A DNA stretch of 16,885 nt from a virus. Taxonomy: Duplodnaviria; Heunggongvirae; Uroviricota; Caudoviricetes. Positions 1-16,885 of this stretch are shown in pieces. The notes beneath the pieces were generated by a model, which did no database searches, was not told the DNA's origin, and saw nothing but the letters and a program-made list of their open reading frames with translations. Each line of letters opens with the position of its first letter. Positions within the stretch are counted from its first letter, which is position 1. Location of the stretch: IMG/VR virus record IMGVR_UViG_2531839454_000016. The stretch is one strand, 5' to 3'. The position numbers were made by a program, and so were the translations under genes.

Positions 1-233
1 GCACATCCGATGGCAAGAGGCCCGAAGGTCCCCCTCTTTGGTCTTGCGACGTTATGCGGTATTAGCTACCGTTTCCAGTAGTTATCCCCCTCCATCAGGC
101 AGTTTCCCAGACATTACTCACCCGTCCGCCACTCGTCAGCGAAGCAGCAAGCTGCTTCCTGTTACCGTTCGACTTGCATGTGTTAGGCCTGCCGCCAGCG
201 TTCAATCTGAGCCATGATCAAACTCTTCAATTT
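1..233 (-). rRNA. rrsG: 16S ribosomal RNA, 5' portion only (gene continues past the window start); mature 5' end at about 233
   Basis: Reverse complement of 170-233 reads AAATTGAAGAGTTTGATCATGGCTCAGATTGAACGCTGGCGGCAGGCCTAACACATGCAAGTCGAACGG, the canonical enterobacterial 16S 5' end. The rrsG assignment is inferred from the adjacent clpB, as in E. coli K-12. Confidence 0.9.
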
Positions 234-357
234 AAAAGTTTGATGCTCAAAGAATTAAACTTCGTAATGAATTACGTGTTCACTCTTGAGACTTGGTATT
301 CATTTTTCGTCTTGCGACGTTAAGAATCCGTATCTTCGAGTGCCCACACAGATTGTC

Positions 358-378
358 TGATAAATTGTTAAAGAGCAG
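358..378 (-). promoter_or_regulatory. rrn leader boxA antitermination element
   Basis: Minus strand reads TGCTCTTTAACAATTTATCA, the rrn boxA consensus, between the promoters and the 16S 5' end. Confidence 0.75.
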
Positions 379-414
379 TGCCGCTTCGCTTTTTCTCAGC
401 GGCGCGGGGTGTGC

Positions 415-442
415 ATAATACGCTTTCCCGCTACAGAGTCAA
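415..442 (-). promoter_or_regulatory. rrn P2 promoter
   Basis: Minus strand reads TTGACTCTGTAGCGGGAAAGCGTATTATGCACACC, with -35 TTGACT (437-442) and -10 TATTAT (415-420); matches the recalled rrn P2 architecture. Confidence 0.7.
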
Positions 443-534
443 GCATTTATTTTTGCTTTCTCTGCCGGAATTCTCAGGAGAACCCCGCTGACCCGGCGGC
501 GTGTTTGCCGTTGTTCCGTGTCAGTGGTGGCGCA

Positions 535-590
535 TTATAGGGAGTTATTCCGGCCTGACAAGCGAAAAATATAAAAACTTTATCGTTCGC
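535..590 (-). promoter_or_regulatory. rrn P1 promoter with upstream A/T-rich UP element
   Basis: Minus strand reads TTGTCAGGCCGGAATAACTCCCTATAATGCGCCACCACTG, with -35 TTGTCA (556-561) and -10 TATAAT (535-540), preceded by an A/T-rich tract at 562-590. Confidence 0.75.
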
Positions 591-644
591 TCATTTTTCA
601 GGCAAAACATCTTAAATATAGTCTTTTCCGTCTAACTTATAGAC

Positions 645-672
645 AAAAACGAGCCCCGAAGGGCTCGTTTTA
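645..672 (-). terminator. Rho-independent terminator downstream of clpB (hairpin with A and T tracts on both sides, possibly bidirectional)
   Basis: AAAACGAGCCCC-GAA-GGGGCTCGTTTT inverted repeat immediately after the clpB stop at 677-679. Confidence 0.7.
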
Positions 673-676
673 TCAT

Positions 677-3250
677 TTACTGGACGGCGACAATCCGGTC
701 TTCATTAACTTCCAGGCGAATCACTTTACCCGGAACCAATTCACCAGACAGTATTTGCTGTGCCAGCGGGTTTTCGATCTGCTGCTGGATAGCACGTTTC
801 AAAGGACGTGCACCATAGACTGGATCGTAACCGTTCTCGCTCAGCAGTTTCAGCGCCTCGTCAGAAATGTGGATTTCATAACCACGTTCTTCCAGACGTT
901 TGTACAGACGTTTCAACTGAATCTGCGCAATCGAGGCAATGTGCTGTTCACCCAGCGGATGGAAGACCACCACTTCATCAATACGGTTAATGAATTCCGG
1001 ACGGAAGTTATGGCTTACCACACCGAGCACCAGCTCTTTCATGTGCGCATAATCCAGTTCACCGAAGCGTTCCTGAATCAAATCGGAACCGAGGTTAGAG
1101 GTCATAATGACAACCGTATTACGGAAGTCGACCGTTCTCCCCTGCCCGTCAGTCAGACGACCATCATCCAGTACCTGCAACAGAATGTTGAAGACATCCG
1201 GATGCGCTTTTTCCACTTCATCCAGCAGGATGACGGAATACGGACGACGACGCACAGCTTCGGTCAGGTAGCCACCTTCTTCATAACCGACATATCCCGG
1301 AGGCGCACCAACCAGACGAGACACCGAGTGTTTCTCCATAAACTCGGACATATCGATACGGACCATCGCCTCGTCGCTATCAAACATAAAGTTCGCCAGC
1401 GCCTTACAAAGCTCAGTTTTCCCCACACCCGTTGGGCCGAGGAACAGGAATGAACCAATCGGGCGATTTGGATCCGCCAACCCCGCACGGCTACGGCGAA
1501 TAGCGTTAGATACCGCATCAACCGCTTCGTTCTGACCAATGACGCGATGGTGCAGTTCTTGCTCCATACGCAGCAGTTTTTCGCGCTCGCTTTCCATCAT
1601 GCGAGAAACCGGAATCCCCGTCCAACGCGCCAGCACTTCAGCAATTTCGGCGTCGGTCACTTTATTACGCAACAGACGCATAGTTTTGCCTTCGAGCTGC
1701 GTTGCGGCTTCCAGTTGCTTTTCCAGTTCCGGGATTTTGCCGTATTGCAGTTCAGACATCCGCGCCAGGTCCCCCACACGGCGAGCCTGTTCAATAGCGA
1801 TTTTCGCCTGTTCCAGTTCCGCTTTAATGGTCTGCGTACCAGAAAGCGATGCCTTCTCTGCTTTCCACTCTTCTTCTAACTCGGAGTACTGACGTTCTTT
1901 GTCGCTCAGTTCTTCGTTGAGCATATCCAGGCGTTTTTTACTGGCTTCATCAGACTCTTTCATTAACGCCTGTTGTTCCAGTTTGAGCTGGATGATACGA
2001 CGATCGAGTCGGTCGAGTTCTTCTGGTTTTGAGTCAATCTGCATACGAATGCTGGATGCTGCTTCATCGATCAGGTCGATGGCTTTATCCGGCAGCTGAC
2101 GGTCAGCAATGTAGCGATGAGACAACGTCGCCGCTGCAACAATTGCCGGGTCAGTAATTTGCACATGGTGGTGCAATTCGTAACGTTCTTTCAGGCCACG
2201 CAGAATCGCAATGGTATCTTCAACAGAAGGCTCGGCAACAAACACTTTCTGGAAACGACGTTCCAGCGCAGCATCTTTTTCGATGTACTGGCGATATTCG
2301 TCAAGCGTCGTGGCACCTACGCAGTGCAATTCACCACGCGCCAGCGCCGGTTTCAGCATGTTTCCGGCGTCCATTGCGCCATCGGCTTTACCCGCGCCGA
2401 CCATGGTATGTAATTCGTCGATAAACAGGATGACGTTGCCTTCCTGTTTGGCAAGATCGTTAAGCACGCCTTTTAAACGTTCTTCAAACTCACCGCGATA
2501 TTTCGCCCCAGCCCCCAGCGCGCCCATATCCAGCGCCAGTACGCGGCGGCCTTTCAATCCTTCCGGCACTTCGCCGTTGATAATACGCTGCGCCAGACCT
2601 TCAACGATGGCAGTTTTACCGACGCCGGGTTCACCAATCAGTACCGGGTTATTTTTAGTACGACGTTGCAGCACCTGAATGGTACGGCGAATTTCTTCAT
2701 CACGACCAATCACCGGATCGAGTTTGCCCTGTTCGGCTCGTTCGGTAAGGTCGATGGTATATTTTTTCAAAGCCTGACGTTGGTCTTCAGCACCTTGATC
2801 GTTCACGCTTTCACCTCCACGCATTTGTTCAATCGCTTGAGTAATGTTGGCGGTGGTCGCCCCTGCTGCTTTCAGGATGTCGGCCAGCGTGCCGCGAGAC
2901 TCAAGTGCCGCCAGAACGAACAGTTCTGACGAGATAAAGTTATCACCACGTTTTTGCGCCAGCTTGTCGCAAAGATTAAGAACGCGCACCAGATCCTGTG
3001 ATGGCTGGACATCACCACCAGTACCTTCAACCTGCGGTAAACGATTTAATGCCTGATTGATATCTGTGCGCAACTGGCCAGCATTTATGCCAGCGGATGT
3101 TAATAAAGGACTAACCGAACCCCCTTCCTGATTCAGCAGGGCGCTCATTAAATGAAGTGGTTCGATAAATTGGTTGTCGTGCCCGAGTGCAAGTGATTGG
3201 GCATCGGCAAGAGCAAGCTGGAATTTATTAGTAAGACGATCCAGACGCAT
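677..3250 (-). CDS. clpB: ClpB disaggregase (Hsp100 AAA+ chaperone), 857 aa
   Basis: ORF 677..3262; translation from [20 protein letters not shown] to NEDRIVAVQ matches ClpB, with two AAA+ modules (GEPGVGKT and GPTGVGKT Walker A) and a coiled-coil middle domain. Start placed at the MRLDR ATG, preceded by GGGAGGAG. Confidence 0.95.
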
Positions 3251-3287
3251 AACTCCTCCCATAACGGATCAAAGTTGCTACTGGAGA

Positions 3288-3320
3288 TTAAATGAGGTCA
3301 TCCCTCAATTATTCAAGGTT
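3288..3320 (-). promoter_or_regulatory. Putative sigma32 heat-shock promoter of clpB
   Basis: Minus strand reads CTTGAATAATTGAGGGATGACCTCATTTAATC, with CTTGAA as -35 and CCTCATTTA as a sigma32-like -10 about 14 nt downstream. Confidence 0.55.
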
Positions 3321-3379
3321 ATTGACCAGATTAATGTGAAAAGAAAATCACGCGTACCGGATCGTCTTGATTCTTTAGG

Positions 3380-4111
3380 TTATATCAGCCAAATGAAACT
3401 TGCCATACGACCGGTGGTCTTGTCGCGACGATAAGAGAAGAAAGTCTCATTTTCCGTATATGTACAACGGTCGCCGCCGAAAATTTGCTCAACACCCACG
3501 TTCGCCAGACGCTGCCGGGCAAGCTGATAAATATCCGCCAGATACTTATCACCATGCTGAATGAAAGCTGCACTTGCTTTAGCGTCTACTGCCATAAACG
3601 CCTCGCGAACCTCCACCCCCACTTCGAACGCGCGTGGACCAATTGCCGGCCCTAACCAGGCGAGAATATTTTCCGGATTATCAGCAAAACAGGAAACCGT
3701 CTCTTCCAGCACGCCTGCGCACAGTCCACGCCAGCCAGCATGAGCGGCGGCGACTTCCGTTCCCGCTCGATTGCAAAACAGCACAGGGAGGCAGTCGGCA
3801 GTCATCACTGCGCAAACCGTGCCGGGCGTATTGCTATAAGAGGCATCTGCTCGTTTTGAGGCATAAGGTTCGCCAGTAAGCTTAAGCACATCTTTGCCGT
3901 GTACCTGCTCAAGCCAGACCGGTTTAGAAGGCAAATTGCCCGCAGCAAAAAGTCGCTTGCGATTCTCCTCAACGTGATCCGGGTTATCGCCACAATGGGC
4001 ACCGAGGTTGAGCGAGTCATACGGGGGCAAGCTCACGCCGCCGATACGAGAAGAGCTACAGGCCGCAACACCTTTTGGTAGCGGCCACTGCGGGACAATC
4101 AGCTTACTCAT
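3380..4111 (-). CDS. pgeF: PgeF/YfiH family protein (purine nucleoside phosphorylase / peptidoglycan editing factor), 243 aa
   Basis: ORF 3380..4111; length and gene order (clpB-yfiH-rluD) match enterobacterial yfiH; overlaps rluD by 4 nt (ATGA). Confidence 0.88.
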   Translation of the reverse strand: MSKLIVPQWPLPKGVAACSSSRIGGVSLPPYDSLNLGAHCGDNPDHVEENRKRLFAAGNLPSKPVWLEQVHGKDVLKLTGEPYASKRADASYSNTPGTVCAVMTADCLPVLFCNRAGTEVAAAHAGWRGLCAGVLEETVSCFADNPENILAWLGPAIGPRAFEVGVEVREAFMAVDAKASAAFIQHGDKYLADIYQLARQRLANVGVEQIFGGDRCTYTENETFFSYRRDKTTGRMASFIWLI

Positions 4112-5088
4112 AACCAGTCCACTTCATCCTTATGCTCTTCGAAATCGGCGCGCATCACCTCAATCAGCTCCACCATATCTTGTGGAATAGGCGCATGCCA
4201 TTCCATTTCGATGCCGGAGATCGGGTGATAAAGACGCAGCATGGTTGCATGAAGCGCCTGGCGGTCAAACTTACGCAGCATGGAGATAAATGCTTCCGAA
4301 GCACCTTTTGGCGGACGCGGACGGCCACCATAAACCGGATCGCCCACCAGCGGATGAGTGATATGGGCCATATGCACGCGGATCTGGTGCGTACGTCCAG
4401 TTTCCAGACGCAACCGCAGACGCGTGTGCACACGGAAGTGTTCCATGATGCGATAGTGAGTCACCGCCGGTTTGCCCATCGGATGCACCGCCATGTGAGT
4501 ACGTTTGGTCGGGTGGCGGCTGATGGGTTCATCTACTGTACCGCCAGCGGTCATATGACCAATCGCCACCGCTTCATACTCACGAGTAATTTCACGCCGT
4601 TGCAAAGATTCGACTAAACGCGTCTGAGCCGGAACGGTTTTTGCCACAACCATCAGGCCAGTGGTGTCTTTATCCAGACGATGGACGATGCCCGCACGTG
4701 GTACATCGGCAATGGGCGGATAGTAATGAAGCAACGCATTCAGTACCGTGCCATCCGGGTTACCCGCGCCAGGATGTACCACCAGGTCGCGCGGTTTATT
4801 AATGACGATGATATCTTCATCTTCATAGACGATATCCAGCGGGATATCCTGCGGTTCAAAACGCGCTTCTTCTTCAATCTCAGCGTTGATGGCAACCTGC
4901 TCGCCACCCAATACTTTTTCTTTCGGCTTATCACAAACTTTGCCGTTTACCAGCACGCGCTGGTCGAGGATCCATTCTTTTATTCGCGAACGTGAATAAT
5001 CCGGGAACATTTCGGCCAAAGCCTGATCTAAGCGTTGACCGAGTTGGTTTTCGGACACCGTTGCAGTGAGCTGTACTCGTTGTGCCAT
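4108..5088 (-). CDS. rluD: 23S rRNA pseudouridine synthase RluD, 326 aa
   Basis: ORF 4108..5088; RluA-family pseudouridine synthase core motif HRLDKDTTGLMVVAK with an N-terminal S4-like domain; position divergent from bamD as in E. coli. Confidence 0.9.
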   Translation of the reverse strand: MAQRVQLTATVSENQLGQRLDQALAEMFPDYSRSRIKEWILDQRVLVNGKVCDKPKEKVLGGEQVAINAEIEEEARFEPQDIPLDIVYEDEDIIVINKPRDLVVHPGAGNPDGTVLNALLHYYPPIADVPRAGIVHRLDKDTTGLMVVAKTVPAQTRLVESLQRREITREYEAVAIGHMTAGGTVDEPISRHPTKRTHMAVHPMGKPAVTHYRIMEHFRVHTRLRLRLETGRTHQIRVHMAHITHPLVGDPVYGGRPRPPKGASEAFISMLRKFDRQALHATMLRLYHPISGIEMEWHAPIPQDMVELIEVMRADFEEHKDEVDWL

Positions 5089-5222
5089 ATATACTGCTTC
5101 TTCGTTTATCGTTGGGGTTTTACGGCTTTGCCGTTTAATATAGTGTGCTATTGTAGCTGGTCTTAACCGGGAGCAGGAACAGAGAATCTCCCGTATTACA
5201 TTTTGAGGAAAGTCAAAACGTC

Positions 5223-5960
5223 ATGACGCGCATGAAATATCTGGTGGCAGCCGCCACACTAAGCCTGTTTTTGGCGGGTTGCTCGGGGTCAAAGGAAGAA
5301 GTACCTGATAATCCGCCAAATGAAATTTACGCGACTGCACAACAAAAGCTGCAGGACGGTAACTGGAGACAGGCAATAACGCAACTGGAAGCGTTAGATA
5401 ATCGCTATCCGTTTGGTCCGTATTCGCAGCAGGTGCAGCTGGATCTCATCTACGCCTACTATAAAAACGCCGATTTGCCGTTAGCGCAGGCTGCCATCGA
5501 TCGTTTTATTCGCCTTAACCCGACCCATCCGAATATCGATTATGTCATGTACATGCGTGGCCTGACCAATATGGCGCTGGATGACAGTGCGCTGCAAGGG
5601 TTCTTTGGCGTTGACCGTAGCGATCGCGATCCTCAACATGCACGAGCTGCGTTTAGTGACTTTTCCAAACTGGTACGCGGCTATCCAAACAGTCAGTACA
5701 CCACCGATGCCACCAAACGTCTGGTATTCCTGAAAGATCGTCTGGCGAAATATGAATACTCCGTGGCCGAGTACTATACAGAACGTGGCGCATGGGTTGC
5801 CGTCGTTAACCGCGTAGAAGGAATGTTGCGCGACTACCCGGATACCCAGGCTACGCGTGATGCGCTGCCGCTGATGGAAAATGCATACCGTCAGATGCAG
5901 ATGAATGCGCAAGCTGAAAAAGTAGCGAAAATCATCGCCGCAAACAGCAGCAATACATAA
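5223..5960 (+). CDS. bamD: Outer membrane protein assembly factor BamD (lipoprotein, TPR-like), 245 aa
   Basis: ORF 5223..5960; signal peptide with lipobox LAGC ([22 protein letters not shown]); matches BamD/YfiO. Confidence 0.92.
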
Positions 5961-5977
5961 CAGAAACCTGAAATACA

Positions 5978-6010
5978 AAACGGCAGCCCTTGAGCTGCCG
6001 TTTTTTTATT
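5978..6010 (+). terminator. Rho-independent terminator after bamD
   Basis: AAAACGGCAGC-CCTTGA-GCTGCCGTTTTTTTATT hairpin plus T tract. Confidence 0.75.
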
Positions 6011-6130
6011 CTGTTAGTTGTGAAACTGAAGCGATTTAGTCACTATCGATCTCATCAAATATGGCTCGCTTTGAGATATTCCTCAAGTAAAAAAACACCT
6101 CTTCCTGCGATTTCTCACAAAAAAGATTCG

Positions 6131-6160
6131 TTGACAAAAAGTGACAAAATTATGAGATTC
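6131..6160 (+). promoter_or_regulatory. Candidate raiA promoter (-35 TTGACA)
   Basis: TTGACAAAAAGTGACAAAATTATGAGATTC about 70 nt upstream of the raiA ATG; the -10 assignment is ambiguous. Confidence 0.35.
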
Positions 6161-6176
6161 CCATCACACATTTTGA

Positions 6177-6572
<396 letters not shown>

Positions 6573-6595
6573 TCCTTTATATTGAGTGTATCGCC

Positions 6596-6620
6596 AACGC
6601 GCCTTCGGGCGCGTTTTTTG
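6596..6620 (+). terminator. Rho-independent terminator after raiA
   Basis: AACGCGCC-TTCG-GGCGCGTT followed by TTTTTG. Confidence 0.75.
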
Positions 6621-6696
6621 TAAAGCTAACAAATTGTTTCTATTAGCTTATTTCTTATAAACATCCACAAACTGTCCACATCAGTAATGATATACA

Positions 6697-6722
6697 AGCC
6701 CGCAAAAAATGCGGGCTTTGTC
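6697..6722 (-). terminator. Terminator hairpin downstream of the methyltransferase gene
   Basis: AGCCCGC-AAAAAAT-GCGGGCT hairpin directly after the stop at 6723; T-rich on the minus-strand transcript. Confidence 0.6.
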
Positions 6723-7529
6723 TTATGTAGCCGAAATGGTTGTGGTAATAGTCCCCCGAAGCCGCTGCGCTGCTACCTCAAAATAATGATCACTGGTTTC
6801 TATACCAATAAATTTTCGCCCTGCTTTCAGTGCAGCCACACCCGTTGTCCCTGACCCCATAAAAGGATCAAGGACTGTTCCGCCACTATTCACAGTCCTG
6901 ACCAGTTCCGCCATTAGTTCTTCTGGTTTTCCGGTCGGGTGCATTTTCTTTGACGGGATAACCGGGTACGTCATGCAGCCGTCGAACGGCCCCGAAGGCG
7001 ATTTATCTAAATGGCCTTTGCTGCCCCAGACGATGTATTCACACTGATGCCTGAAATACCCCGTATGGGGTGTTCGTGACCCCCTCCCCTTGTTCCACGC
7101 AATGATGCCGCGCCATGTAAAGCCGCTGGCCTGAAACGCATCGGTTAAAGCTGGTAGTTGTCGCCAGTCAGTAAATACCAGGGCATAACCGCCCGGCCTG
7201 ACTGCGCGGTGTGCCTGTGCCATCCATAATTGTGTCCAGTAAGCCCACGAACGGGCGTCCATGTTTTCACCCGCGAACCCATCAAAGCGGTGAAGGTTCT
7301 CGCTGTTCAGATATTTTGCATGGCTGCCCTGGTTGGTGCGTCCGGCTTTGTGTGTCGCCCCCGAACTGTAAGGCGGGTCAGTGATTAAGGCATCAATGCT
7401 TTCTGGCTCAATCAGCGGCAATATTTCCAGCGCATTCCCACGACAGAGCGTGGCATTGTCAGTCTGATAAACCTTAGTGTGTTCCGGTGTATGTGCTGGT
7501 TGGTGCTGGATTGCGATCCCCACGGTCAT
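6723..7529 (-). CDS. DNA methyltransferase, amino-methyltransferase type (N6-adenine or N4-cytosine), 268 aa
   Basis: ORF 6723..7529; DPPY catalytic motif near the N-terminus (LITDPPYSSG) and AdoMet-binding FxGxG near the C-terminus (DPFMGSGTTG); ATG preceded by SD GAGGAG. Confidence 0.8.
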   Translation of the reverse strand: MTVGIAIQHQPAHTPEHTKVYQTDNATLCRGNALEILPLIEPESIDALITDPPYSSGATHKAGRTNQGSHAKYLNSENLHRFDGFAGENMDARSWAYWTQLWMAQAHRAVRPGGYALVFTDWRQLPALTDAFQASGFTWRGIIAWNKGRGSRTPHTGYFRHQCEYIVWGSKGHLDKSPSGPFDGCMTYPVIPSKKMHPTGKPEELMAELVRTVNSGGTVLDPFMGSGTTGVAALKAGRKFIGIETSDHYFEVAAQRLRGTITTTISAT

Positions 7530-7671
7530 AACTCCTCATGTGTGTGGGGTGCTCGATGGCTCTCGTTATCTGGTTAAGTGTTTTGCAGCGCGGACATTTT
7601 ATTTCAATGTAGTGAAATGAGGCGCGGGCAAGTAGTTTGTTGCAATTTTTGCATCGTACATTTTGCGTCAT
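7474..7671 (-). CDS. Com-like zinc-finger protein (phage Mu Com family translational activator), about 65 aa
   Basis: ORF 7474..7680; RCKNCNKLLA...HYIEIKCPRCKTLNQI closely resembles Mu Com (C-x2-C...C-x2-C). Its 3' end overlaps the methyltransferase start by 56 nt. ATG at 7671 preceded by AAGAGG; alternative GTG start at 7680. Confidence 0.7.
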   Translation of the reverse strand: MTQNVRCKNCNKLLARASFHYIEIKCPRCKTLNQITRAIEHPTHMRSYDRGDRNPAPTSTYTGTH

Positions 7672-7710
7672 TTGCGGCACCTCTTGTGTGGTTACTGCTG
7701 CCGATATGAT

Positions 7711-7760
7711 AACAAATCGATCGCTTTTATCGATCGGATTTATTGCATCGATCTGTTATG
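7711..7760 (-). promoter_or_regulatory. Cluster of three GATC (Dam) sites in repeated TCGATC motifs upstream of com; candidate methylation-sensitive operator/promoter
   Basis: GATC at 7719-7722, 7732-7735 and 7750-7753 within 35 bp, each inside TCGATCG/TCGATCT, 40-80 bp upstream of the com start. Confidence 0.45.
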
Positions 7761-7810
7761 CCTATTACTTATGAATGGTGTTACCCTCATTTATGAGGGC
7801 AACAAAAAGA

Positions 7811-7838
7811 AAACCCGCAGTTTTTACGCTGCGGGTTT
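7811..7838 (-). terminator. Rho-independent terminator after the zinc-ribbon/TM2 gene
   Basis: Minus transcript reads ACCCGCAG-CGTAAAAA-CTGCGGGT followed by TTTCTTTTTGTTG. Confidence 0.7.
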
Positions 7839-7863
7839 GTCATTCTGATTCGCCCACTAGGCA

Positions 7864-8160
7864 TTAGCCATATTTGCGGGCAAAGTCTTCATCAGAGGTG
7901 CATAGATAGATAAAAAACTCAATAAATGCCACGATTGCCGGAATGAATGTCCAGCAAAAAATAAGGTAAAGGAATCCTTGCCCCACTTTACCTAAATAAA
8001 ATTTGTGTGCACCAAGACCACCTAAAAAGAAAGCCAGTAGTGCGGCTGTCATTCTGCTTTTTGAACTTGCTGTTCTTTGAGGTGCTCCACAATTGGGGCA
8101 GGATGTGGCATCTTTATGTATTTCCTTGCCGCATCCGCGACAAAATACCATTTCACTCAT
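7864..8160 (-). CDS. Small membrane protein with N-terminal zinc ribbon and C-terminal TM2 domain, 98 aa, function unknown
   Basis: ORF 7864..8160; CRGCGKEIHKDATSCPNCG zinc ribbon; TM2 signature LLAFFLGGLGAHKFYLGKVGQGFLYL with two predicted TM helices; SD AAGGAA upstream. Confidence 0.7.
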   Translation of the reverse strand: MSEMVFCRGCGKEIHKDATSCPNCGAPQRTASSKSRMTAALLAFFLGGLGAHKFYLGKVGQGFLYLIFCWTFIPAIVAFIEFFIYLCTSDEDFARKYG

Positions 8161-8295
8161 AAAGAGTTCCTTTCAAATTTAAATAAGCGTTAAGCCCACC
8201 ACTCTTACTGGTGGGCCTCAATTTAAATTTGGGTGCCACTTCGACCATACCCTGGCAACCGATTGACGGGGGATTGCTCCCCCGTCGCGGTTTCC

Positions 8296-8436
8296 TTACT
8301 GCTTACACTGTAAGAACGCCGCAAACTCCGCTCCCCAGAAGCTCATCCGTATTTCACACAGCGAACCGTGCAGCATCCAGATGATGAGGATTACCGTCAC
8401 GCAGAACGTGATGGCCGTAAGCGATTTTTGCGACAT
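8296..8436 (-). CDS. Hok/Gef-family small membrane toxin homologue, 46 aa
   Basis: Hand translation of the minus strand gives MSQKSLTAITFCVTVILIIWMLHGSLCEIRMSFWGAEFAAFLQCKQ: a hydrophobic TM helix followed by the Hok signature SLCEIR...E.AAFL.CK. SD AAGGAG lies 8 nt upstream. Below the 60-aa cut-off of the ORF track. Confidence 0.75.
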   Translation of the reverse strand: MSQKSLTAITFCVTVILIIWMLHGSLCEIRMSFWGAEFAAFLQCKQ

Positions 8437-8627
8437 AGCGCTTGCTCCTTTGTTGGAGAGGCGCTAACCTATCACTTGCTTAAGGTAGATATGTTAGGGC
8501 CTCGGTTAAACAGAAATGTTTTCCGGGGCCTTTCCACATCTGGCCTTCGGGTATTCCCTCCGACCATCAGCCGAAAGGCACCCGCGCGTAATCTATCGCT
8601 TTTTTGTTACTCCGGCAATTCTGCCTG

Positions 8628-8888
8628 TTAATTCTGAGATAAAGGCAAACTCATCTGATTGTTTCCCCTGTGTGAAGCTGGCAGCTCATGCCACGGGATA
8701 CCTTCTGAAGAGTGAACGCCGGAGGCGTGTTTTGATGTGAATTTATGGAAAGCTTCCAGTGTTGAGAAGCATACGCCGCATTCCAGATTGTTACACTGGT
8801 AATACTTTTGCCGCACGGTGTTTGAATCATTTTCCGGACGACTGGTGCGGATACGGGCAGATGCGCCACAAAGCGGACAACGGAACAT
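8628..8888 (-). CDS. ogr: Ogr/Delta-family zinc-finger late transcription activator, 86 aa
   Basis: ORF 8628..8888; MFRCPLCGASARIRTSR...YYQCNNLECGVCF matches the P2 Ogr C-x2-C...C-x4-C motif; strong SD GGGAGG; located directly downstream of gpD as in P2. Confidence 0.85.
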   Translation of the reverse strand: MFRCPLCGASARIRTSRPENDSNTVRQKYYQCNNLECGVCFSTLEAFHKFTSKHASGVHSSEGIPWHELPASHRGNNQMSLPLSQN

Positions 8889-8930
8889 AGCGACCTCCCT
8901 TAACGTGGTGCTGCCGCTATTCTAAGTTGC

Positions 8931-10040
8931 TCACTCTGTTTCCGCTATCCATTCCGGGATTTTTGCCTCAAGCTCAAGCTGCGTGGTAAAGCCGCTGTTA
9001 TCAATGGTGTGCTCGGCTTTTGCAATAATCCAGTCCTGATTATCAATCTCGCTTTTAAATCCTGTTACCGTGCCATGCATTTCGGGGTAGAGTTCTGCTC
9101 GTCCACGTGCCAGCGTGATGGAGAATGATGCGGCTCCGCGTTGTAGTTGTTGCCACTTTGCCGCCGCTGCGCGTCTTGCTGCCTGCTCGTTCTGATAAGT
9201 CTTGCGTAACACAAACACATTGCCTTCCGCGCCTTCCATATAATCACCTTCACGGCTGCTGCTTTTCTCCTTTTTGGGTTTTGGCGGTTTGCGGCGTTTC
9301 ACGCTGACTTTTTTCTTTTTCCCGTAATTAAGATCAAGCCAGTAGGCGCGTACCCCCGTATACGCCTCGCGGTCAGCAATGCGGAACTGATGGCGATCGC
9401 CGCTGCTGCGTGTAATGGCGAACGAGGGCAACGGCTGGCCCTGTGCGTTCACGCCACCGCCTGGCATAATGAATAACAGATTGCCGCTTTTTACCGTGGT
9501 GATTGCGCCCAGCATTTCCGCCATGCGCGTAAGGAAGGACATGTCGCTTTCTTCGGTCTGGTCGGCGTGGTCGATTTCGATATCCATCAGCATTTCGCTG
9601 ATTTGCGGTTTCAGACCGTACCGATGAGCGATGGCGGATACCACGCGCTCAACGGTCACATCATGCCAGGACACCTCACGTTTAACGTTAAATTCATCCC
9701 GAAAATCTGCGCTTCTGGCTGAAACAGTCAGCCTGTCCGGCGGTCCTTCGTGAGCGATTTCATCAACAATGTAAGTGCCTTTTTCTGTCAGCGGTTCTCC
9801 TTTCCAGCCAATGAGAACCGTCAGGCGCGCGCCCCGTGGCGGTAGCTGCAACTGACCATCCGCATCATCCAGCGTGATGGTGAGCTGGTCCGCCTCAAAT
9901 CCCCGGTTGTCGGTCAGTGACAGGCTCATCAGGCGCTCTGCCACGCCTGACAGCGTTTTACCCTCCGCGAGAATATCAAAATCCGGCATTTTCACGGGGT
10001 CTGTGCCCTGACTGAGCAATTGCATGGTGGTGTCGGTCAT
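8931..10040 (-). CDS. Phage tail protein D (P2 gpD, late control D family), about 370 aa
   Basis: ORF 8931..10172; start placed at MTDTTMQLL (ATG 10040-10038) preceded by GGGAGGGAG; size and sequence character match P2 gpD. Confidence 0.85.
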   Translation of the reverse strand: MTDTTMQLLSQGTDPVKMPDFDILAEGKTLSGVAERLMSLSLTDNRGFEADQLTITLDDADGQLQLPPRGARLTVLIGWKGEPLTEKGTYIVDEIAHEGPPDRLTVSARSADFRDEFNVKREVSWHDVTVERVVSAIAHRYGLKPQISEMLMDIEIDHADQTEESDMSFLTRMAEMLGAITTVKSGNLLFIMPGGGVNAQGQPLPSFAITRSSGDRHQFRIADREAYTGVRAYWLDLNYGKKKKVSVKRRKPPKPKKEKSSSREGDYMEGAEGNVFVLRKTYQNEQAARRAAAAKWQQLQRGAASFSITLARGRAELYPEMHGTVTGFKSEIDNQDWIIAKAEHTIDNSGFTTQLELEAKIPEWIAETE

Positions 10041-10197
10041 CTGCTCCCTCCCTGTGTGGCATGGTCGCATGTGCGTGCGGAGGGGGTTACTGCTTTTTGT
10101 TGTCGCCGTGGCGGGAGAATGGCGCAGGGGTGAGATTACGCGCGTGGTGGGTGATGATTGTTGCCGAATCATTTAACGGATACAAGGGGCTGAAGCT

Positions 10198-11382
10198 ATG
10201 AGTGAAACTCGTTTTCATGGTGCCCGTGTTACGGAAAATACCGACCTGGTAACAGCGATTAACGATGTTGATTCCAGCGTTATCGGTATCGTGGCAACGG
10301 CGGATGATGCGGACGCGAAGCTGTTCCCGCTGAACAAGCCCACACTGCTGACCCGCGTCAATGACGTGCTGGGAAAATGCGGGACAACGGGGACGCTTTA
10401 TCGTGCGCTTAAGGCCATCGCAGACCAGGTGAGCACAAAGGTGATCGTCGTTCGCGTGGCTGAACACAAAGAAGAAGACGAAAAGACGCAGGATCAACTG
10501 GTTATCGGTGGTTCTGAGGATGACGGCAGCTATACGGGGATGTATGCGCTGCTTGTTGCAGAGCAGGATGAAAGCATCGGATACCGTCCGCGTATTCTGG
10601 CCGCGCCGGAGCTGGACACGGAGGCTGTAACAAAATCCCTGTGCGTGATTGCAGGTAAACTGCGCGCGTTTGTGTATGCCTCATGTCACGGCTGTAATAC
10701 GATGGCTGAGGCGATTACCTACCGCCAGAAATTCAACGAACGTGAGGGGATGCTCCTATGGCCGGACTTCATCGCCTACAACCCGAAAAGTGGCAAAAAC
10801 GAAACGTTCCCCGCGCCTGCCTATGCGTGCGGCCTTCGTGCGTACATTGACCATGAGCAGGGATGGCACAAATCACTGTCCAACGTTCCGGTTAAAAATG
10901 TGCTGGGGATGTCGAGGCATGTGTTCTGGTCGTTGCAGGCCGAAGACAGCGATGCCAACAGCCTCAACAACAAAGAAATCACGACCATTATTCGTCGCAA
11001 CGGGTTCCGATTCTGGGGCAACCGCACACCGGAAACGAACGCCTACATCTTTGAGGTGTATACCCGAACCGCACAGGTGCTGGCTGATTCAATTGCGGAA
11101 GCGCAGTTTGAAACCATCGACAGTCCACTGACGCCTGCGAACGTGAAGGATGTTATCAGTGCCATCAGGGCAAAACTGGATTCACTGGTTACTGCCGGGA
11201 AACTGATTGGCGCGGAGTGCTGGTATGACGTGGTGGATAATAGCACCACGGATTTACGTCAGGGGCGTGTGCGTATTCGCTACAAATATACGCCCGTTCC
11301 GCCACTGGAAGACATGGAGCTTTACCAGACGTTTACTGATGAATACTTTGAACCCGCATTTGCGGTGCTGGGAGGTGCCTGA
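10198..11382 (+). CDS. Contractile tail sheath protein (P2 FI-like), 394 aa
   Basis: ORF 10198..11382; size and position (before tube and E/T/U) match P2 FI; C-terminus overlaps the next start (TGATG). Confidence 0.9.
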   Translation: MSETRFHGARVTENTDLVTAINDVDSSVIGIVATADDADAKLFPLNKPTLLTRVNDVLGKCGTTGTLYRALKAIADQVSTKVIVVRVAEHKEEDEKTQDQLVIGGSEDDGSYTGMYALLVAEQDESIGYRPRILAAPELDTEAVTKSLCVIAGKLRAFVYASCHGCNTMAEAITYRQKFNEREGMLLWPDFIAYNPKSGKNETFPAPAYACGLRAYIDHEQGWHKSLSNVPVKNVLGMSRHVFWSLQAEDSDANSLNNKEITTIIRRNGFRFWGNRTPETNAYIFEVYTRTAQVLADSIAEAQFETIDSPLTPANVKDVISAIRAKLDSLVTAGKLIGAECWYDVVDNSTTDLRQGRVRIRYKYTPVPPLEDMELYQTFTDEYFEPAFAVLGGA

Positions 11383-11894
11383 TGGCTGTGCCAAAACATC
11401 TTCGCTTTTTTACGCTGTTTGTGGATGGTGAAAACGAAGTGGGTAAGGTGACGTCCGTCACTCTACCTAAGCTGACGCGCAAAACCGACAGCTACCGGGG
11501 TGGTGGCATGATGGGTGCGGTAAGTATTGATCTCGGTCTGGACGACTCCGCGCTTGATGCGAGCTTTGTCATGGGGGGCGCAGTTCGTGAGCTGTTCCTT
11601 AAGTATGGCGGCACGATTGACGGCACGCTGCTGCGTTTTGCGGGTGAATACTACACCGATGCAGAAAGCGACCTGTATGAAGTCGAAATGCGCGGACGTG
11701 TGACGGAAATTGATATGGGGGAAGCCAAACAGGGCGAAGCCACATCACACACTTACGCCATTAAAAACACCTACTACAAGCTGAGTGTTAACGATCGCCC
11801 GTTGTGGGAGATTGACCTGCTGAACTTCATTTACCGGAAGGACGGCAAGGACATTGTGCCTGACCGTATCCGTTCCGCGCTCGGGCTTGGCTGA
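11382..11894 (+). CDS. Tail tube protein (P2 FII-like), 170 aa
   Basis: ORF 11382..11894; size and position match P2 FII; SD GGGAGGTG. Confidence 0.9.
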   Translation: MAVPKHLRFFTLFVDGENEVGKVTSVTLPKLTRKTDSYRGGGMMGAVSIDLGLDDSALDASFVMGGAVRELFLKYGGTIDGTLLRFAGEYYTDAESDLYEVEMRGRVTEIDMGEAKQGEATSHTYAIKNTYYKLSVNDRPLWEIDLLNFIYRKDGKDIVPDRIRSALGLG

Positions 11895-11949
11895 TAAGTA
11901 ATATGCAGGCGGCGCAGTGCGTCGCCTCTGACTGAAAAGGAGAAAACTG

Positions 11950-12324
11950 ATGAAAGACATCGATACTGAAACCCGGAATAACACCGTGGCGGATGATGTG
12001 ACGGCAGGTGAGGATATGGCTGTCGAACGTGGCGTAAAACTGACCCGACCAATTGAGCGTGGTGGCGAAAAAATCACGTATGTGGAGATCACCGGGGCTA
12101 TTGAACAGGCTGGATCCCTGCGTGGTCTGTCGCTGTCTGATGTGCTGAATCTGAAAGCGGATACCATGTTCACGCTGTTGCCTCGCGTGACCTCGCCACG
12201 ACTGGATGAAGTGATGATTAAAAAAATGTCGTCACGCGATTTTATTCAGTTGTGCGCTGTGGCTGTAAATTTTATGAGCGAGCCAGACTCTGGCGCGAAG
12301 AGCGCGCAGGAGACGGCAGCGTAA
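11950..12324 (+). CDS. Tail assembly chaperone (P2 gpE-like), 124 aa
   Basis: ORF 11950..12324 between tube and tape-measure genes; SD AAGGAG; gpE-like pattern (L..PI.RGG..I..V.I...G.LRG.SL.D). Confidence 0.75.
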   Translation: MKDIDTETRNNTVADDVTAGEDMAVERGVKLTRPIERGGEKITYVEITGAIEQAGSLRGLSLSDVLNLKADTMFTLLPRVTSPRLDEVMIKKMSSRDFIQLCAVAVNFMSEPDSGAKSAQETAA

Positions 12325-12488
12325 TCACCCTGGTGTGCTTTGAGCACATCGAAGATCTGGTGGCAGATATCGCCGCCATTTTTAACTGGTCGCCCGCCGA
12401 AATCTTCATGATGACGCCCGGCGAAGTGGTTAGCTGGCGTGAGCGGGCGGCACTTCGCAGCGGGAATGCAGACAATGAAGACTCTTGA
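11950..12488 (+). CDS. Predicted E+E' fusion chaperone made by -1 programmed ribosomal frameshift near the end of E
   Basis: The -1 frame is open from 12222 to the stop at 12486-12488, overlapping the last 34 codons of E and ending at the tape-measure start. An A7 run (12220-12226) in the E frame is a candidate slippery site. Confidence 0.5.
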
Positions 12489-15282
12489 TATCCGGGTCGC
12501 TTTCAGCGCCGTTGACAGGCTGACCCGGCCTGCCGAAAACGCCCGCCGCCTGATGGGGCAGTTTGGTGACTCCATCCAGCGAACGCAGGGGGCGATCAAA
12601 AATCTCGAGCGTCAGGCGCGTTCATTTGAGCGCGCCCGTGACGCTGTCAGTAAAGCGGATGCGGGCATCGTGAAAGCACGACGCCAGCTTAACGCCCTTA
12701 ATCAGTTACAACGCACGGGTACAGTGCTCAGCGAAAAACAACAAAAGCTGATGCAGCAGTTAAGCACCCGGCTTGAACGCCTGAATGAATCGCGCACACG
12801 GGAAATTCAGAAAATGCGGGAACTTGGCGGAGAGCTGAAACGCCACGGCATTTCCCTGACAGGCAGCGATAACACCATCCAGCAGGCCATCAGACGCACC
12901 GAACAGTACAACAACCAGCTTGAACGCGAACGGCAGGCGCTTGCGCGTGTAACACGTGCGCGTGAGCGGTATTCGCGCGCGCAGGAAACCGCGGGAAAAC
13001 TGAAAACAGGTGGTGCGCTGGCAATTGGTGCGGCAGCGGCTGGCAGCTATGCTGCCGGGCGTTTTTTGCAGCCTGCGATCGGGTTCGGGAAAGAGATGTC
13101 CCGCGTTCAGGCACTGACGCGAATCGACAAAAACAGCCCGCAGTTTAAGGCGCTGCGTGAGCAGGCGTTAAAACTTGGCTCTGAAACGCAGTTCACCGCA
13201 GGCGATGCCGCCAGTGGGCAGGCATTTCTTGCAATGGCTGGCTTCACACCGCAGGCCATTCAGGCTGCGCTTCCGGGCGTGCTGAGCATGGCAACGGCTG
13301 GCGGTATGGATCTCGGCGAGACGGCGGATATTGGCTCAAATATCCTGACGCAGTTCGGCCTTTCTGCTGACCAGATGGACCGGGTCGGTGACACACTTAC
13401 CGCAGCGTTTACCCGTACCAACACTGACCTTCGCGCACTGGGTGAAACCATGAAATATGCAGGTCCGGTGGCGGGTAAGCTGGGAATATCGCTGGAGCAG
13501 GCCGCAGCGATGGCGGGCGTGCTGGCGAATATGGGTATCAGGGGTAGTGATGCTGGTACGGCAATGCGTGCCAGCCTGGCTCGTCTGGCATCACCGCCAA
13601 AGGCGGCAGCAGAGGCGCTGAAAGAGCTTGGCGTGTCTGTCTCGGATGCCGGGGGCAAAATGCGCCCGATGGAGGATGTGCTGGCTGACCTTTATAAAGC
13701 CACCCGCAAATACGGGGAAGTTGACCGGGTATCGTTCTTTAAGGACATTGCCGGAGAAGAGGCTTTCACATCATTTATGGCCCTCGTTGATGCGGCAGGT
13801 GACGGCTCCTTACCCAAACTGAGAAAAGAACTTGAAGGTGCGCGCGGTGAGGCTGAACGCACGGCAAAGGTTATGGCCAATAACCTTGATGGCGACCTGA
13901 AATCACTCGGCAGTGCATGGGAAGGGCTGCGTATCCGCATTGCAGATCTGATTGATGGTCCGCTGCGTTCTGTCACGCAGTGGCTCACGCGGGTGGTCTC
14001 AAAGGTGACGGCGCTGGCACAGGCCCATCCGGTACTGACGCGCCAGTTACTGATAGCAGGCGGTGCGCTGCTGGCAATGACTGCAACGGTTGGCTCGTTG
14101 TCGCTGGTTATTGGAGTGCTTCACGGGAAGCTGGCCACGTTGCGTCTTGGTTTTTCTCTCCTGACCGGATCAATGAATGCTGTCAGGGTTCTGCCTGCAT
14201 TATGGGGAATGGTGACAGGCTCCATCTCGTTACTGGGAGGCGCTGTCGGGGCGCTGTTCAGTCCGGTCGGGTTGATTGCTGCAGCGTTTGTCGCTGCGGC
14301 GGTTCTCATCTGGAAATACTGGGAACCCATCAAGGCGTTTTATGCCGGGGTGTTCAGTGGGATTATGGAAAGGCTGACCCCGTTGCGCGAAACCTTTGAA
14401 CGGTTTAGTCCTGTTTTTGACGCAATCGGGAGTGGGATCAGCCAGGTGTTTAACTGGTTTAAATCGCTGCTGTCACCGATGGAGTCCAGCAAGGAAACTC
14501 TGGATAAATGTACCAGTGCTGGCGAGATATTCGGTAACGTTCTTGGCGGTGCGTTACAACTTGTTCTGACACCTGCAAAAATGTTGCTGGATACGCTGGC
14601 GTGGATACTTGAAAAGCTTGGTGTGCTTCCGGATGAAGCGGAAAGGGCGCGCAAGAAAATCGAAGACGCACAGCGTGCGGCCATTCTTCAGGACAAGGTT
14701 GCCTTGCTTCAGGGGGACCTGGCGAAAATCAATCCGCCGAAGCCTGTGGAAAATGGCAATGGCACCGGAGGTGATAACCCCAAAGACAATAAACCGCTCA
14801 CAGACAGCAATACCGGTACGCTGCGCAGACTCAGCAAAATTGCTGATAACACAGGTAAGCTGGTTGAGGAGACGAAAAAACGCATTGGCCCCGGCGATAT
14901 TGTCTTTAAAAACCTGCCCCGGGCACTTGCTGTTCGTGGGGAGTGGCAGGAGCGGAAGATTGCGCAGGTCAGTAAGCCTGCCCCCGCAATTAATATCACA
15001 CCCGTGGTCCCGGCTCCGCTGCCTCCGGCGCTGGTCACTGTTGTTGCGGCCAGCTCCCGCCCGGTGGCGGAGGCTATACGATCTCCAGTGGCATCAGTTC
15101 CTGTAACTTCCCGTAACCGGGAGCCTGTTGCCTCCGAATTTGGTGGTGAAATTCATGTTCATCTGCATAACGTTGTTACGCAGAATCCCCGCGAACTGGC
15201 GAAACTGGTCGGTGAAATGGTCAGGGCAGAAATGGAACGGCGCGCCCGTGCCGGGCGTGGCAGTTTTTACGATAAAGATTGA
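12466..15282 (+). CDS. Tail tape measure protein (P2 gpT-like), about 939 aa
   Basis: ORF 12439..15282; long alpha-helical protein with a central hydrophobic segment and Gly/Ala-rich stretches typical of tape-measure proteins; sits between the E/E' chaperone and gpU. Start ambiguous (GTG 12439, ATG 12466 or ATG 12475). Confidence 0.85.
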   Translation: MQTMKTLDIRVAFSAVDRLTRPAENARRLMGQFGDSIQRTQGAIKNLERQARSFERARDAVSKADAGIVKARRQLNALNQLQRTGTVLSEKQQKLMQQLSTRLERLNESRTREIQKMRELGGELKRHGISLTGSDNTIQQAIRRTEQYNNQLERERQALARVTRARERYSRAQETAGKLKTGGALAIGAAAAGSYAAGRFLQPAIGFGKEMSRVQALTRIDKNSPQFKALREQALKLGSETQFTAGDAASGQAFLAMAGFTPQAIQAALPGVLSMATAGGMDLGETADIGSNILTQFGLSADQMDRVGDTLTAAFTRTNTDLRALGETMKYAGPVAGKLGISLEQAAAMAGVLANMGIRGSDAGTAMRASLARLASPPKAAAEALKELGVSVSDAGGKMRPMEDVLADLYKATRKYGEVDRVSFFKDIAGEEAFTSFMALVDAAGDGSLPKLRKELEGARGEAERTAKVMANNLDGDLKSLGSAWEGLRIRIADLIDGPLRSVTQWLTRVVSKVTALAQAHPVLTRQLLIAGGALLAMTATVGSLSLVIGVLHGKLATLRLGFSLLTGSMNAVRVLPALWGMVTGSISLLGGAVGALFSPVGLIAAAFVAAAVLIWKYWEPIKAFYAGVFSGIMERLTPLRETFERFSPVFDAIGSGISQVFNWFKSLLSPMESSKETLDKCTSAGEIFGNVLGGALQLVLTPAKMLLDTLAWILEKLGVLPDEAERARKKIEDAQRAAILQDKVALLQGDLAKINPPKPVENGNGTGGDNPKDNKPLTDSNTGTLRRLSKIADNTGKLVEETKKRIGPGDIVFKNLPRALAVRGEWQERKIAQVSKPAPAINITPVVPAPLPPALVTVVAASSRPVAEAIRSPVASVPVTSRNREPVASEFGGEIHVHLHNVVTQNPRELAKLVGEMVRAEMERRARAGRGSFYDKD

Positions 15283-15294
15283 GGAGTCATGGCC

Positions 15295-15783
15295 ATGATG
15301 ATGATCTACGGCATGTTTGTTTTTGAGCTGCGCACGCTGCCGCATCAGCAGTTACAGCAAAACAAAAGCTGGCGGCATGTGAAAAATGAACGCATTAACC
15401 GTTCAGCAAGCTGGCAGTATATCGGTGCAGGTGATGATCGCATCGTTCTTTCTGGTGTGCTTTATCCTGAAATTACAGGTGGCGAAGTGTCGCTGTCGCT
15501 GCTGACCACGCAGGCTTATACAGGACGACCCTGGCCTTTGATTGATGGCGTCGGGCAGATTTACGGCATGTATGTCCTGACTGGAACGAATACGACCCGT
15601 TCCGAGTTTGATCGCTACGGTAAGGCGAAAAAGATAGAATTTTCACTGACCCTTGAACGCTGTGATGAGGATTTGCGGGAGCGCCTGCAATCCTCATCGT
15701 TCAGTGATATGCTGTCCGGCTTCAAAGATAAGGTCACATCATCCCTTAACAGCGCGGCCAGCTCCGTTAAAGGGCTGTTTTGA
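15295..15783 (+). CDS. Tail protein U (P2 gpU-like), about 162 aa
   Basis: ORF 15289..15783; MMIYGMFVFELRTLP... resembles the P2 gpU N-terminus; SD GAGGAG at 15281-15286 favours the ATG at 15295. Confidence 0.85.
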   Translation: MMMIYGMFVFELRTLPHQQLQQNKSWRHVKNERINRSASWQYIGAGDDRIVLSGVLYPEITGGEVSLSLLTTQAYTGRPWPLIDGVGQIYGMYVLTGTNTTRSEFDRYGKAKKIEFSLTLERCDEDLRERLQSSSFSDMLSGFKDKVTSSLNSAASSVKGLF

Positions 15784-15790
15784 TTAACGC

Positions 15791-15820
15791 AAAACCGCTA
15801 ATGGTCAGATTAGCGGTTTT
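15791..15820. terminator. Perfect 12-bp hairpin between the convergent gpU and invertase genes (likely bidirectional terminator)
   Basis: AAAACCGCTAAT-GGTCAG-ATTAGCGGTTTT followed by CATTTTCC on the plus strand; overlaps the last codons of the invertase. Confidence 0.6.
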
Positions 15821-16409
15821 CATTTTCCTGAGTCTGCCTGGTTGTTTCTTCAGCCTGTATATCGCCTACAGGGTGATAACGATAAATCGTCGATATGCCG
15901 ATGTCGTAAATGATCGCCAGTTGTTTCCTGTCATGACCGTTTTTAATCAGCCTCGCTATTTGCTCGTGTTGTTCTTTTGTCAACTTCGGGCGACGTCCGC
16001 CAATGCGTCCTTGTGCGCGTGCTGCTGCCAGCCCGGCCAGGGTACGCTCTACAATTAATTCACGTTCCATTTCGGCTAAAGCCCCCATGACGTGAAAAAA
16101 GAAACGCCCCATGGGTGTTGATGTGTCAATGCTGTCCGTCAGACTACGGAAATTAACACCTTTTTCCCGCAATTCCTCAATAAGCGTGATCAGGTGTTTC
16201 ATACTTCTGCCCAGTCTGTCCAGCTTCCAGACAACCAGCGTATCTCCTTCTGATAGCGTTCTGATCAGTTTTTTCAATCCCGGTCTGGCTGATTTCGTTC
16301 CGCTGATTTTATCTTCAAAAATTAGTTCACATCCTGCGCACTCCAGCGCGTTACGCTGCAATTCTGTATTCTGGTCATTTGTTGATACGCGGACATAGCC
16401 AATAAGCAT
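15810..16409 (-). CDS. Serine-recombinase DNA invertase (Hin/Gin/Pin/Cin family), 199 aa
   Basis: ORF 15810..16409; MLIGYVRVSTNDQNTELQRNAL...VVWKLDRLGRSMKHL...GRRPKL is near-identical in pattern to e14 Pin and Mu Gin, including the catalytic serine and C-terminal HTH. Confidence 0.92.
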   Translation of the reverse strand: MLIGYVRVSTNDQNTELQRNALECAGCELIFEDKISGTKSARPGLKKLIRTLSEGDTLVVWKLDRLGRSMKHLITLIEELREKGVNFRSLTDSIDTSTPMGRFFFHVMGALAEMERELIVERTLAGLAAARAQGRIGGRRPKLTKEQHEQIARLIKNGHDRKQLAIIYDIGISTIYRYHPVGDIQAEETTRQTQENENR

Positions 16410-16465
16410 GATGGATCCCCTGAATAAAAACCGGGGATGATGCCAGTTAGCCGTAATCTCTGCAT

Positions 16466-16491
16466 TTTCTTAAACGTTGGTTTGGGAGAAG
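16466..16491. other. hix/gix/cix-type 26-bp invertase crossover site
   Basis: Reverse complement TTCTCCCAAACCAACGTTTAAGAAAA matches hixL TTCTTGAAAACCAAGGTTTTTGATAA at about 20 of 26 positions (AAACC..GTTT core); about 57 bp upstream of the invertase start. Confidence 0.7.
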
Positions 16492-16650
16492 CGGCGAAAA
16501 GGGATGTGGGCACAGGAGAAAATCAGATACCGGATATGTCAGCCTGGAAAAGAAATCCGAGTTCTAATCGCTGGAGAAAATTGCCTGATGGAACCATCAT
16601 TCAAATGGGAATATCAGCATCAGGGCCATTAGGCTCACCCGACCAATAAA

Positions 16651-16885
16651 TTGCCTGATTTACGCGGTGAATTTATTCGTGGCTGGGATGACGGTCGCGG
16701 GATTGATACTGGTCGCGCTTTGCTTAATTGGCAGCCACACACAATTTTGGACCATGCACACTATATGGAATTATGGACAGGGGACGGACTCGCCGCAGGA
16801 AGTGCACGGGAAGGAGTAAACCCAGGAATACTGGCTACATACGGTGACGGGGGAATAGTTAAAACGGACGAACCCGGTCTTAAGG
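16651..16885 (+). CDS. Partial tail-fibre variable C-terminal segment (tail-collar-like domain), truncated by the window end; probably the unexpressed alternative segment of the invertible region
   Basis: Frame 1 translation LPDLRGEFIRGWDDGRGIDTGRALLNWQPHTILDHAHYMELW... resembles the phage tail-collar/tail-fibre motif. A different frame (16437..16649) is the one open across the crossover site, so there is a frame break near 16630-16650. Confidence 0.5.
   Translation, partial: MPDLRGEFIRGWDDGRGIDTGRALLNWQPHTILDHAHYMELWTGDGLAAGSAREGVNPGILATYGDGGIVKTDEPGLK

Follow-up and report, generated by a model that had tools for sequence, protein, structure and literature searches.

A Gin/Pin-type invertible tail-fibre segment in a P2-like prophage of Escherichia coli BCE034_MS-14 and a chimeric junction, probably of assembly origin, at its invertase-proximal end

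The invertible G segment of bacteriophage Mu is about 3 kb long and the C segment of bacteriophage P1 measures about 4.2 kb. The invertases of these systems, Gin and Cin, act on 26-bp crossover sites with a 12-2-12 layout. The invertase gene abuts one of the sites and is transcribed away from the segment, which holds two opposed sets of genes, each made up of a variable fibre C-terminus and an assembly gene, and the constant part of the fibre gene stands outside the far site. The P region of e14 in E. coli K-12, with its invertase PinE, and P2-like loci of EPEC E2348/69 are likewise prophage-borne, Pin-type switches of tail-fibre tips. In P2-like prophages, multi-site tail-fibre inversion systems also occur, a locus with three repeats having been described in EPEC E2348/69, and P2-like tail-fibre segments occur in either orientation within clonal E. 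coli cultures (Goldberg et al., 2014; PMC4272514).

In this study, we report the analysis of a stretch of DNA of 16,885 bp (the window), which is the entire draft contig AQCY01000110.1 (assembly GCA_000354335.2) of E. coli BCE034_MS-14. Positions 16410-16885 cover one end of a Gin/Pin-type invertible tail-fibre segment, the one nearer the invertase. The locus resembles Mu G and P1 C in the layout of sites and genes given above, and its invertase is 73.5% identical to Gin over a gap-free alignment of 185 aa with the Mu Gin structures (PDB 4m6f/3uj3, E 1e-91). Unlike Mu G and P1 C, it resides in a P2-like prophage, its segment spans only about 1.86 kb, the central dinucleotide of its sites is TT and its cassettes are of gp53-like and Collar type. 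It has two sites, in contrast to the three of the EPEC E2348/69 P2-like locus, and at its invertase-side end there is a chimeric cassette, which the e14 and EPEC E2348/69 loci do not show. The features on which the analysis is based are the following.

1-233, minus strand: partial 16S rRNA gene at the contig start, a typical repeat-induced draft break
15791-15820, no strand: hairpin AAAACCGCTAAT-GGTCAG-ATTAGCGGTTTT with a 12-pair stem followed by a T run, and A/T runs on both sides
15810-16409, minus strand: serine DNA invertase of the Gin/Hin/Cin/Pin family, 199 aa, with Pfam and PDB matches
16437-16649, plus strand: 70-aa ORF crossing the crossover site, from ATG at 16437 to the stop codon TAA at 16647-16649; a promoterless cassette frame and not a stand-alone gene
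16465-16490, plus strand: invertase-proximal crossover site X1, 26 bp, TTTTCTTAAACG TT GGTTTGGGAGAA, with the central dinucleotide TT at 16477-16478
16492-16639, plus strand: start of the gp53-like cassette, its first ~148 nt, cut 21 residues into the Gp53-like_C domain
16631-16639, plus strand: junction microhomology AGGCT[C/T]ACC, 8/9 identical between the parental cassettes, with the exchange within ACC at 16637-16639
16640-16885, plus strand: Collar-type cassette, distal part only (residue ~425 onward in the 546-aa form of H), in frame 2 and running off the contig end

Along the contig, the 16S rRNA gene is followed by clpB, yfiH, rluD, bamD and raiA and then by the ogr end of a P2-like prophage (Peduoviridae, Gemsvirus/Xuanwuvirus-type), which is integrated beside raiA in E. 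coli BCE034_MS-14. The contig stops on the right among the tail-fibre cassettes, and at either end the break is of the kind that repeats typically cause in short-read drafts. The same gene order as here (ogr, D, FI-FII-E-E'-T-U, invertase, cassette, tfa, tfa and H) is found in Escherichia phage 500465-2 (Gemsvirus) and in phages P88 and P884B11 (Xuanwuvirus), whose stretch from U to the invertase is 88-90% identical to that of the window at the DNA level. The cassette sequences in those records differ from those of the window and are intact.

The product of the invertase gene is a small serine recombinase of the invertase subfamily, with a Resolvase catalytic domain (PF00239, E 9e-52) and a C-terminal HTH (HTH_7, PF02796). 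The hairpin occupies the 26-bp gap that separates the stop codons of the convergent gpU and invertase genes, and it looks like a terminator, possibly a bidirectional one shared by both genes. X1 is located 56 bp upstream of the invertase start codon. When the whole window was searched with a generic 12-2-12 invertase-site pattern, X1 was the single match, with one mismatch, the chance expectation being ~0.09 matches at up to three mismatches in a window of 16.9 kb. The hix/gix-like 26-bp site announced in an earlier note on this DNA is therefore genuine, although it lies at 16465-16490, one base to the left of the position then given (16466-16491).

The nearest finished genome was that of E. 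coli 504838 (NZ_CP025856.1; loci L001 and L005), which differed from positions 1-16491 of the window by three substitutions and one 2-bp indel. In this genome, X1 is followed by a Collar-type cassette, by tfaE and, on the other strand, by a second assembly gene and by the tail-fibre gene H, which ends in a gp53-like domain. The opposite arrangement was found in CE0021a (NZ_CP119006.1; L002), in which the gp53-like cassette stands beside the invertase and H, of 546 aa, carries the Collar domain. The flanks of L001 and L002 were 100% identical and the 1,873-bp interior was reverse-complemented, with the breaks inside TTGGTTTGGGAGAAG. Judged by this alignment, the two loci are inversion isomers broken exactly at the crossover sites. 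The partner site X2 of the finished relatives, TTCTTGATTACC TT GGTTTGGGAGAA, lies inverted inside H, 1,864 bp from X1, and it also has TT as its central dinucleotide. The X1/X2 pair constituted the only inverted repeat of at least 14 nt in the finished segment, and the two tail-fibre assembly genes are located between both sites. Rightward extension through these relatives thus supplied what the earlier note had expected to lie beyond the window, namely an inverted second site, tail-fibre assembly genes and the rest of the segment, and their order of sites, cassettes and assembly genes bears out its comparison with the Mu G or e14 P region viewed from the invertase side.

Ten further loci were retrieved via the identical tape-measure protein. 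All of them had X1, and X2 was also present in seven, that is, wherever the locus reached far enough. The gp53-like cassette adjoins the invertase in L002, L012, L013, L015, L016, L019 and L021, and the Collar cassette does so in L001/L005, L014 and L017. It must be noted that the two orientations were established by comparison across genomes. Depending on the relative, the ATG of the ORF at 16437 opens either a 133-aa gp53-like ORF or a 182-aa Collar ORF. In the intact 133-aa ORF, Pfam Gp53-like_C covers residues 48-132, and in the intact 546-aa H, Pfam Collar (PF07484) covers residues 389-436. The cassettes were intact in every relative examined, none of which had a hybrid junction, and each locus of sufficient length contained exactly two sites. 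In the otherwise near-identical prophage of CE0021a, the tail sheath gene FI is split by an IS4 element (L002 2270-3598), which makes that copy defective.

Sequence comparison thus demonstrates the crossover site and an enzyme resembling Gin and, in close relatives, the partner site and the two isomers of the segment. By homology to Gin, the invertase encoded on the minus strand at 15810-16409 would recombine X1 with the inverted X2 in H, about 1.86 kb to the right and past the contig end. The segment flipped in this way would carry two promoterless C-terminal cassettes, gp53-like and Collar, each with its own tail-fibre assembly gene, and H would thus end in either of two receptor-binding tips. 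The switch is of a known kind, is already annotated for these prophages in many genomes and belongs to the Gin/Pin-type tail-fibre switches of P2-like prophages, which are textbook knowledge.

The frame that is open across X1 stops at 16647-16649 and tail-fibre sequence resumes in another frame, as had been indicated from the letters alone; the +1 frame is open from 16633 up to the last base of the contig. In a three-way alignment, positions 16477-16639 of the window were 100% identical to the H-side arm of 504838 in reverse complement, and the gp53-like part was equally 100% identical to L002 9658-9860. Positions 16631-16885 matched the invertase-side Collar cassette of 504838 from its nt ~113 onward. 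Within this match, 16640-16885 were identical to nt 19612-19857 on the invertase side of 504838 save for the length of one G-run, and their translation equals residues 426-505 of H in L002. On this alignment, the frame break is a chimeric join of two alternative tips that normally lie on opposite strands, with the Collar part starting from nt ~122 of its cassette. Since ~148 nt of gp53-type sequence stand in place of 121 nt of Collar-type sequence, the frame is shifted by +1. The join is therefore out of frame. Of the 85 residues that Gp53-like_C matches it retains 21, and of the 48 that Collar matches roughly the last 11 (about 426-436). Because both domains are truncated at the junction, Pfam gave no match in either fragment of the window, 16633-16884 included, and assignment of this fragment to Collar (PF07484) was not obtained. 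The label tail-collar-like proposed in the earlier note holds for those last ~11 residues and not for a fragment that Pfam scores.

That note had offered two readings of the frame break, a frameshifted pseudogene of one fibre tip or an unusual junction. The homologues assign the two frames to different ORFs, those of the gp53-like and Collar-type cassettes of one invertible segment, and this, an outcome that the note had itself named as a refutation, disposes of the former. The latter was correct in that a gp53-like/Collar join is present, but the join is probably not biological. With respect to the surrounding sequence, a perfect 12-mer, AAATTGCCTGAT (K-L-P-D), occurs at 16578-16589 and again at 16648-16659, 70 nt apart, each parental cassette contributing one copy. 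The frame would have been kept had the exchange fallen on the 12-mer, yet the join lies at the 9-nt microhomology shortly before the second copy, which is a poorer match.

The junction was not found elsewhere. The exact 30-mer across it had no match in 5,426 finished E. coli genomes, the GTDB representative genomes, IMG/VR or the JGI metagenomes. The 70-aa product was a singleton among ~15 billion proteins, present on AQCY01000110.1 only, and the protein cluster around it contained many entries labelled as partial, derived from other drafts whose contigs break in these same 100-300 nt. A reciprocal hybrid of H, predicted at 424 aa, was not in the protein collection either; this counts for little, as H may be divided between contigs. 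In addition, the three substitutions that separate the window from 504838, at 2514, 7359 and 10748, are all GGT-to-GGG changes on the relevant strand. Two of them produce the variants ClpB V246G and sheath V184G, each of which was seen on this contig only among the ~15 billion proteins, and the ClpB version of 504838 is the canonical E. coli sequence, present on at least 1,000 contigs. As these two variants occur nowhere else, the draft consensus contains errors, and the GGT-to-GGG changes are most likely sequence-specific Illumina errors.

At 12974-12975, in the tape-measure gene, 504838 has (CG)3 vs (CG)4 in the window, and in the Collar cassette (L005 ~19820, window ~16848-16852) it has GGGG vs GGGGG. 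Both differences lead to genes annotated as frameshifted in 504838. Since the window versions are in frame, the (CG)3 and GGGG of 504838 are probably errors of its long-read assembly.

Two other lines were considered in relation to the assembly and discarded. Four contigs in drafts of other strains terminate at the position corresponding to 16638, one base from the junction, which might have been taken as support for an assembly fork; a SNP at 16511 together with k = 127 explains their ends, and the agreement is a coincidence. The representative of cluster P0017, on a Logan contig of 16,496 bp, had been considered as an independent assembly of the locus and turned out to be an unrelated gene. 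A search via the tape-measure and sheath proteins revealed no independent assemblies of the same reads.

In attention to these data, we consider that the junction is probably an assembly chimera derived from a culture mixed for both orientations. The sequenced culture would have held both forms, so that reads running from the invertase through X1 into gp53 and reads running from the invertase through X1 into Collar coexisted, and the contig end would have been patched from the two. Both types of read would coexist in one library because clonal E. coli cultures contain both orientations (PMC4272514). An artefact is most likely in view of the whole-contig draft nature of the window, the position of the junction 246 nt from the contig end, its absence elsewhere, the consensus errors and the break of other drafts at this place, and also because the nearest finished genome, 504838, is near-identical to the window and yet has a normal Collar cassette. 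Against it, an 8/9-base join is unlike an error of a de Bruijn graph; to produce it, overlaps must have been merged or a gap closed, or a read must have been chimeric. Moreover, a genuine template switch would leave a microhomology just as well, and BCE034_MS-14 and 504838 are different isolates, which leaves room for a real mutation private to the former. The junction would then be a private and recent rearrangement, the main rival reading and a less likely one, and it could have arisen by two routes. One is a non-reciprocal template switch: past X1, replication would have moved to the other inverted arm, that on the H side, copied ~150 nt of it and returned at the microhomology. The other is a reciprocal inversion between the cassettes at the microhomology, for which the view from the invertase side would be the same. 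Either route kills the invertase-proximal cassette and the reciprocal one kills both. In favour of this reading, the patch reproduces the opposite arm exactly, starting from the common crossover site, and the return point is an 8/9 microhomology, as in quasipalindrome template-switch mutations. Furthermore, a prophage cassette in a lysogen is under no selection. On the other hand, the junction is a singleton in every collection searched, less than 250 nt separate it from a draft contig end, drafts routinely fail in this stretch, and the one at issue has demonstrable consensus errors; the absence of the 424-aa reciprocal hybrid from the protein collection weighs little in the same sense. A genuine in vivo template switch between the arms of the segment, with ~150 nt of the opposite cassette copied across the crossover site, is the less likely alternative to the assembly chimera.

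It could also be proposed that GGCTNACC marks a second, cryptic crossover site in a multiple-inversion system such as Min of p15B or the three-repeat locus of EPEC E2348/69, the hybrid then being a product of the invertase acting at quasi-sites. Multi-site tail-fibre inversion is known in P2-like prophages (PMC4272514), and ACC is present in both parental cassettes where the exchange lies, which formally allows for a central dinucleotide in common. Nevertheless, the parental 26-mers centred on the junction scored 7-10 out of 24 against the bona fide half-sites, true sites scoring 24, and such values are background, corresponding to the 10th-63rd percentile of the segment. X1 and X2 are the sole inverted repeat of at least 14 nt in the finished segment, each examined locus that reaches far enough has the two sites and lacks the hybrid, and the product is out of frame with both domains truncated. 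No additional site-like sequence was found within the segment, and the locus does not qualify as a multiple-inversion system; the cryptic-site proposal is thus very improbable. An ordinary frameshifted pseudogene, in which a single-base indel had disabled one fibre tip, could account for the change of frame by +1 near 16640, and PGAP labels the equivalent cassette of 504838 as frameshifted. The lesion of 504838 is, however, a different one, a G-run of 4 instead of 5 located ~210 nt further on and probably a long-read assembly error. The three-way alignment refutes the single-indel reading for the window, given that the two sides of the break are not the same gene: each comes from its own cassette, the Pfam domains of the two cassettes are distinct, and 148 nt stand against 121 nt replaced. 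Such a pseudogene is accordingly next to inconceivable here.

The biological weight of the locus is small, given that the switch is known and annotated and that its sole unusual element, the junction, is probably not real. The methodological point is that draft contigs ending in invertible segments can carry chimeric ends that mimic frameshifted pseudogenes or odd junctions, and that such calls need checking against finished genomes or reads before they are interpreted. If a template switch had truly taken place, one fibre tip would be inactivated and the 18-nt inverted repeat would become a perfect one of ~163 nt, usable by RecA. It would then represent a route for the decay or reshuffling of tail-fibre switch cassettes, and a small example of template switching between inverted arms.

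With regard to the rest of the prophage, the gene order at 8628-15783 is unlike that of canonical P2, with ogr and D leftward and FI-FII-E-E'-T-U rightward, converging on the invertase. The possibility that the FI-U block is a large rearrangement, perhaps made by the invertase, was rejected, since the order is native to Gemsvirus and Xuanwuvirus phages and thus characterises the lineage rather than reflecting a lesion. The longest ORF of D (start at 10172) and FI (start at 10198) are divergent, with 25 bp between them. Finally, the raiA-ogr interval carries cargo at 6723-8500, consisting of an N6/N4 DNA methyltransferase gene and an overlapping Com-type zinc-ribbon gene, a gene for a TM2-domain protein and a hok/gef toxin gene.
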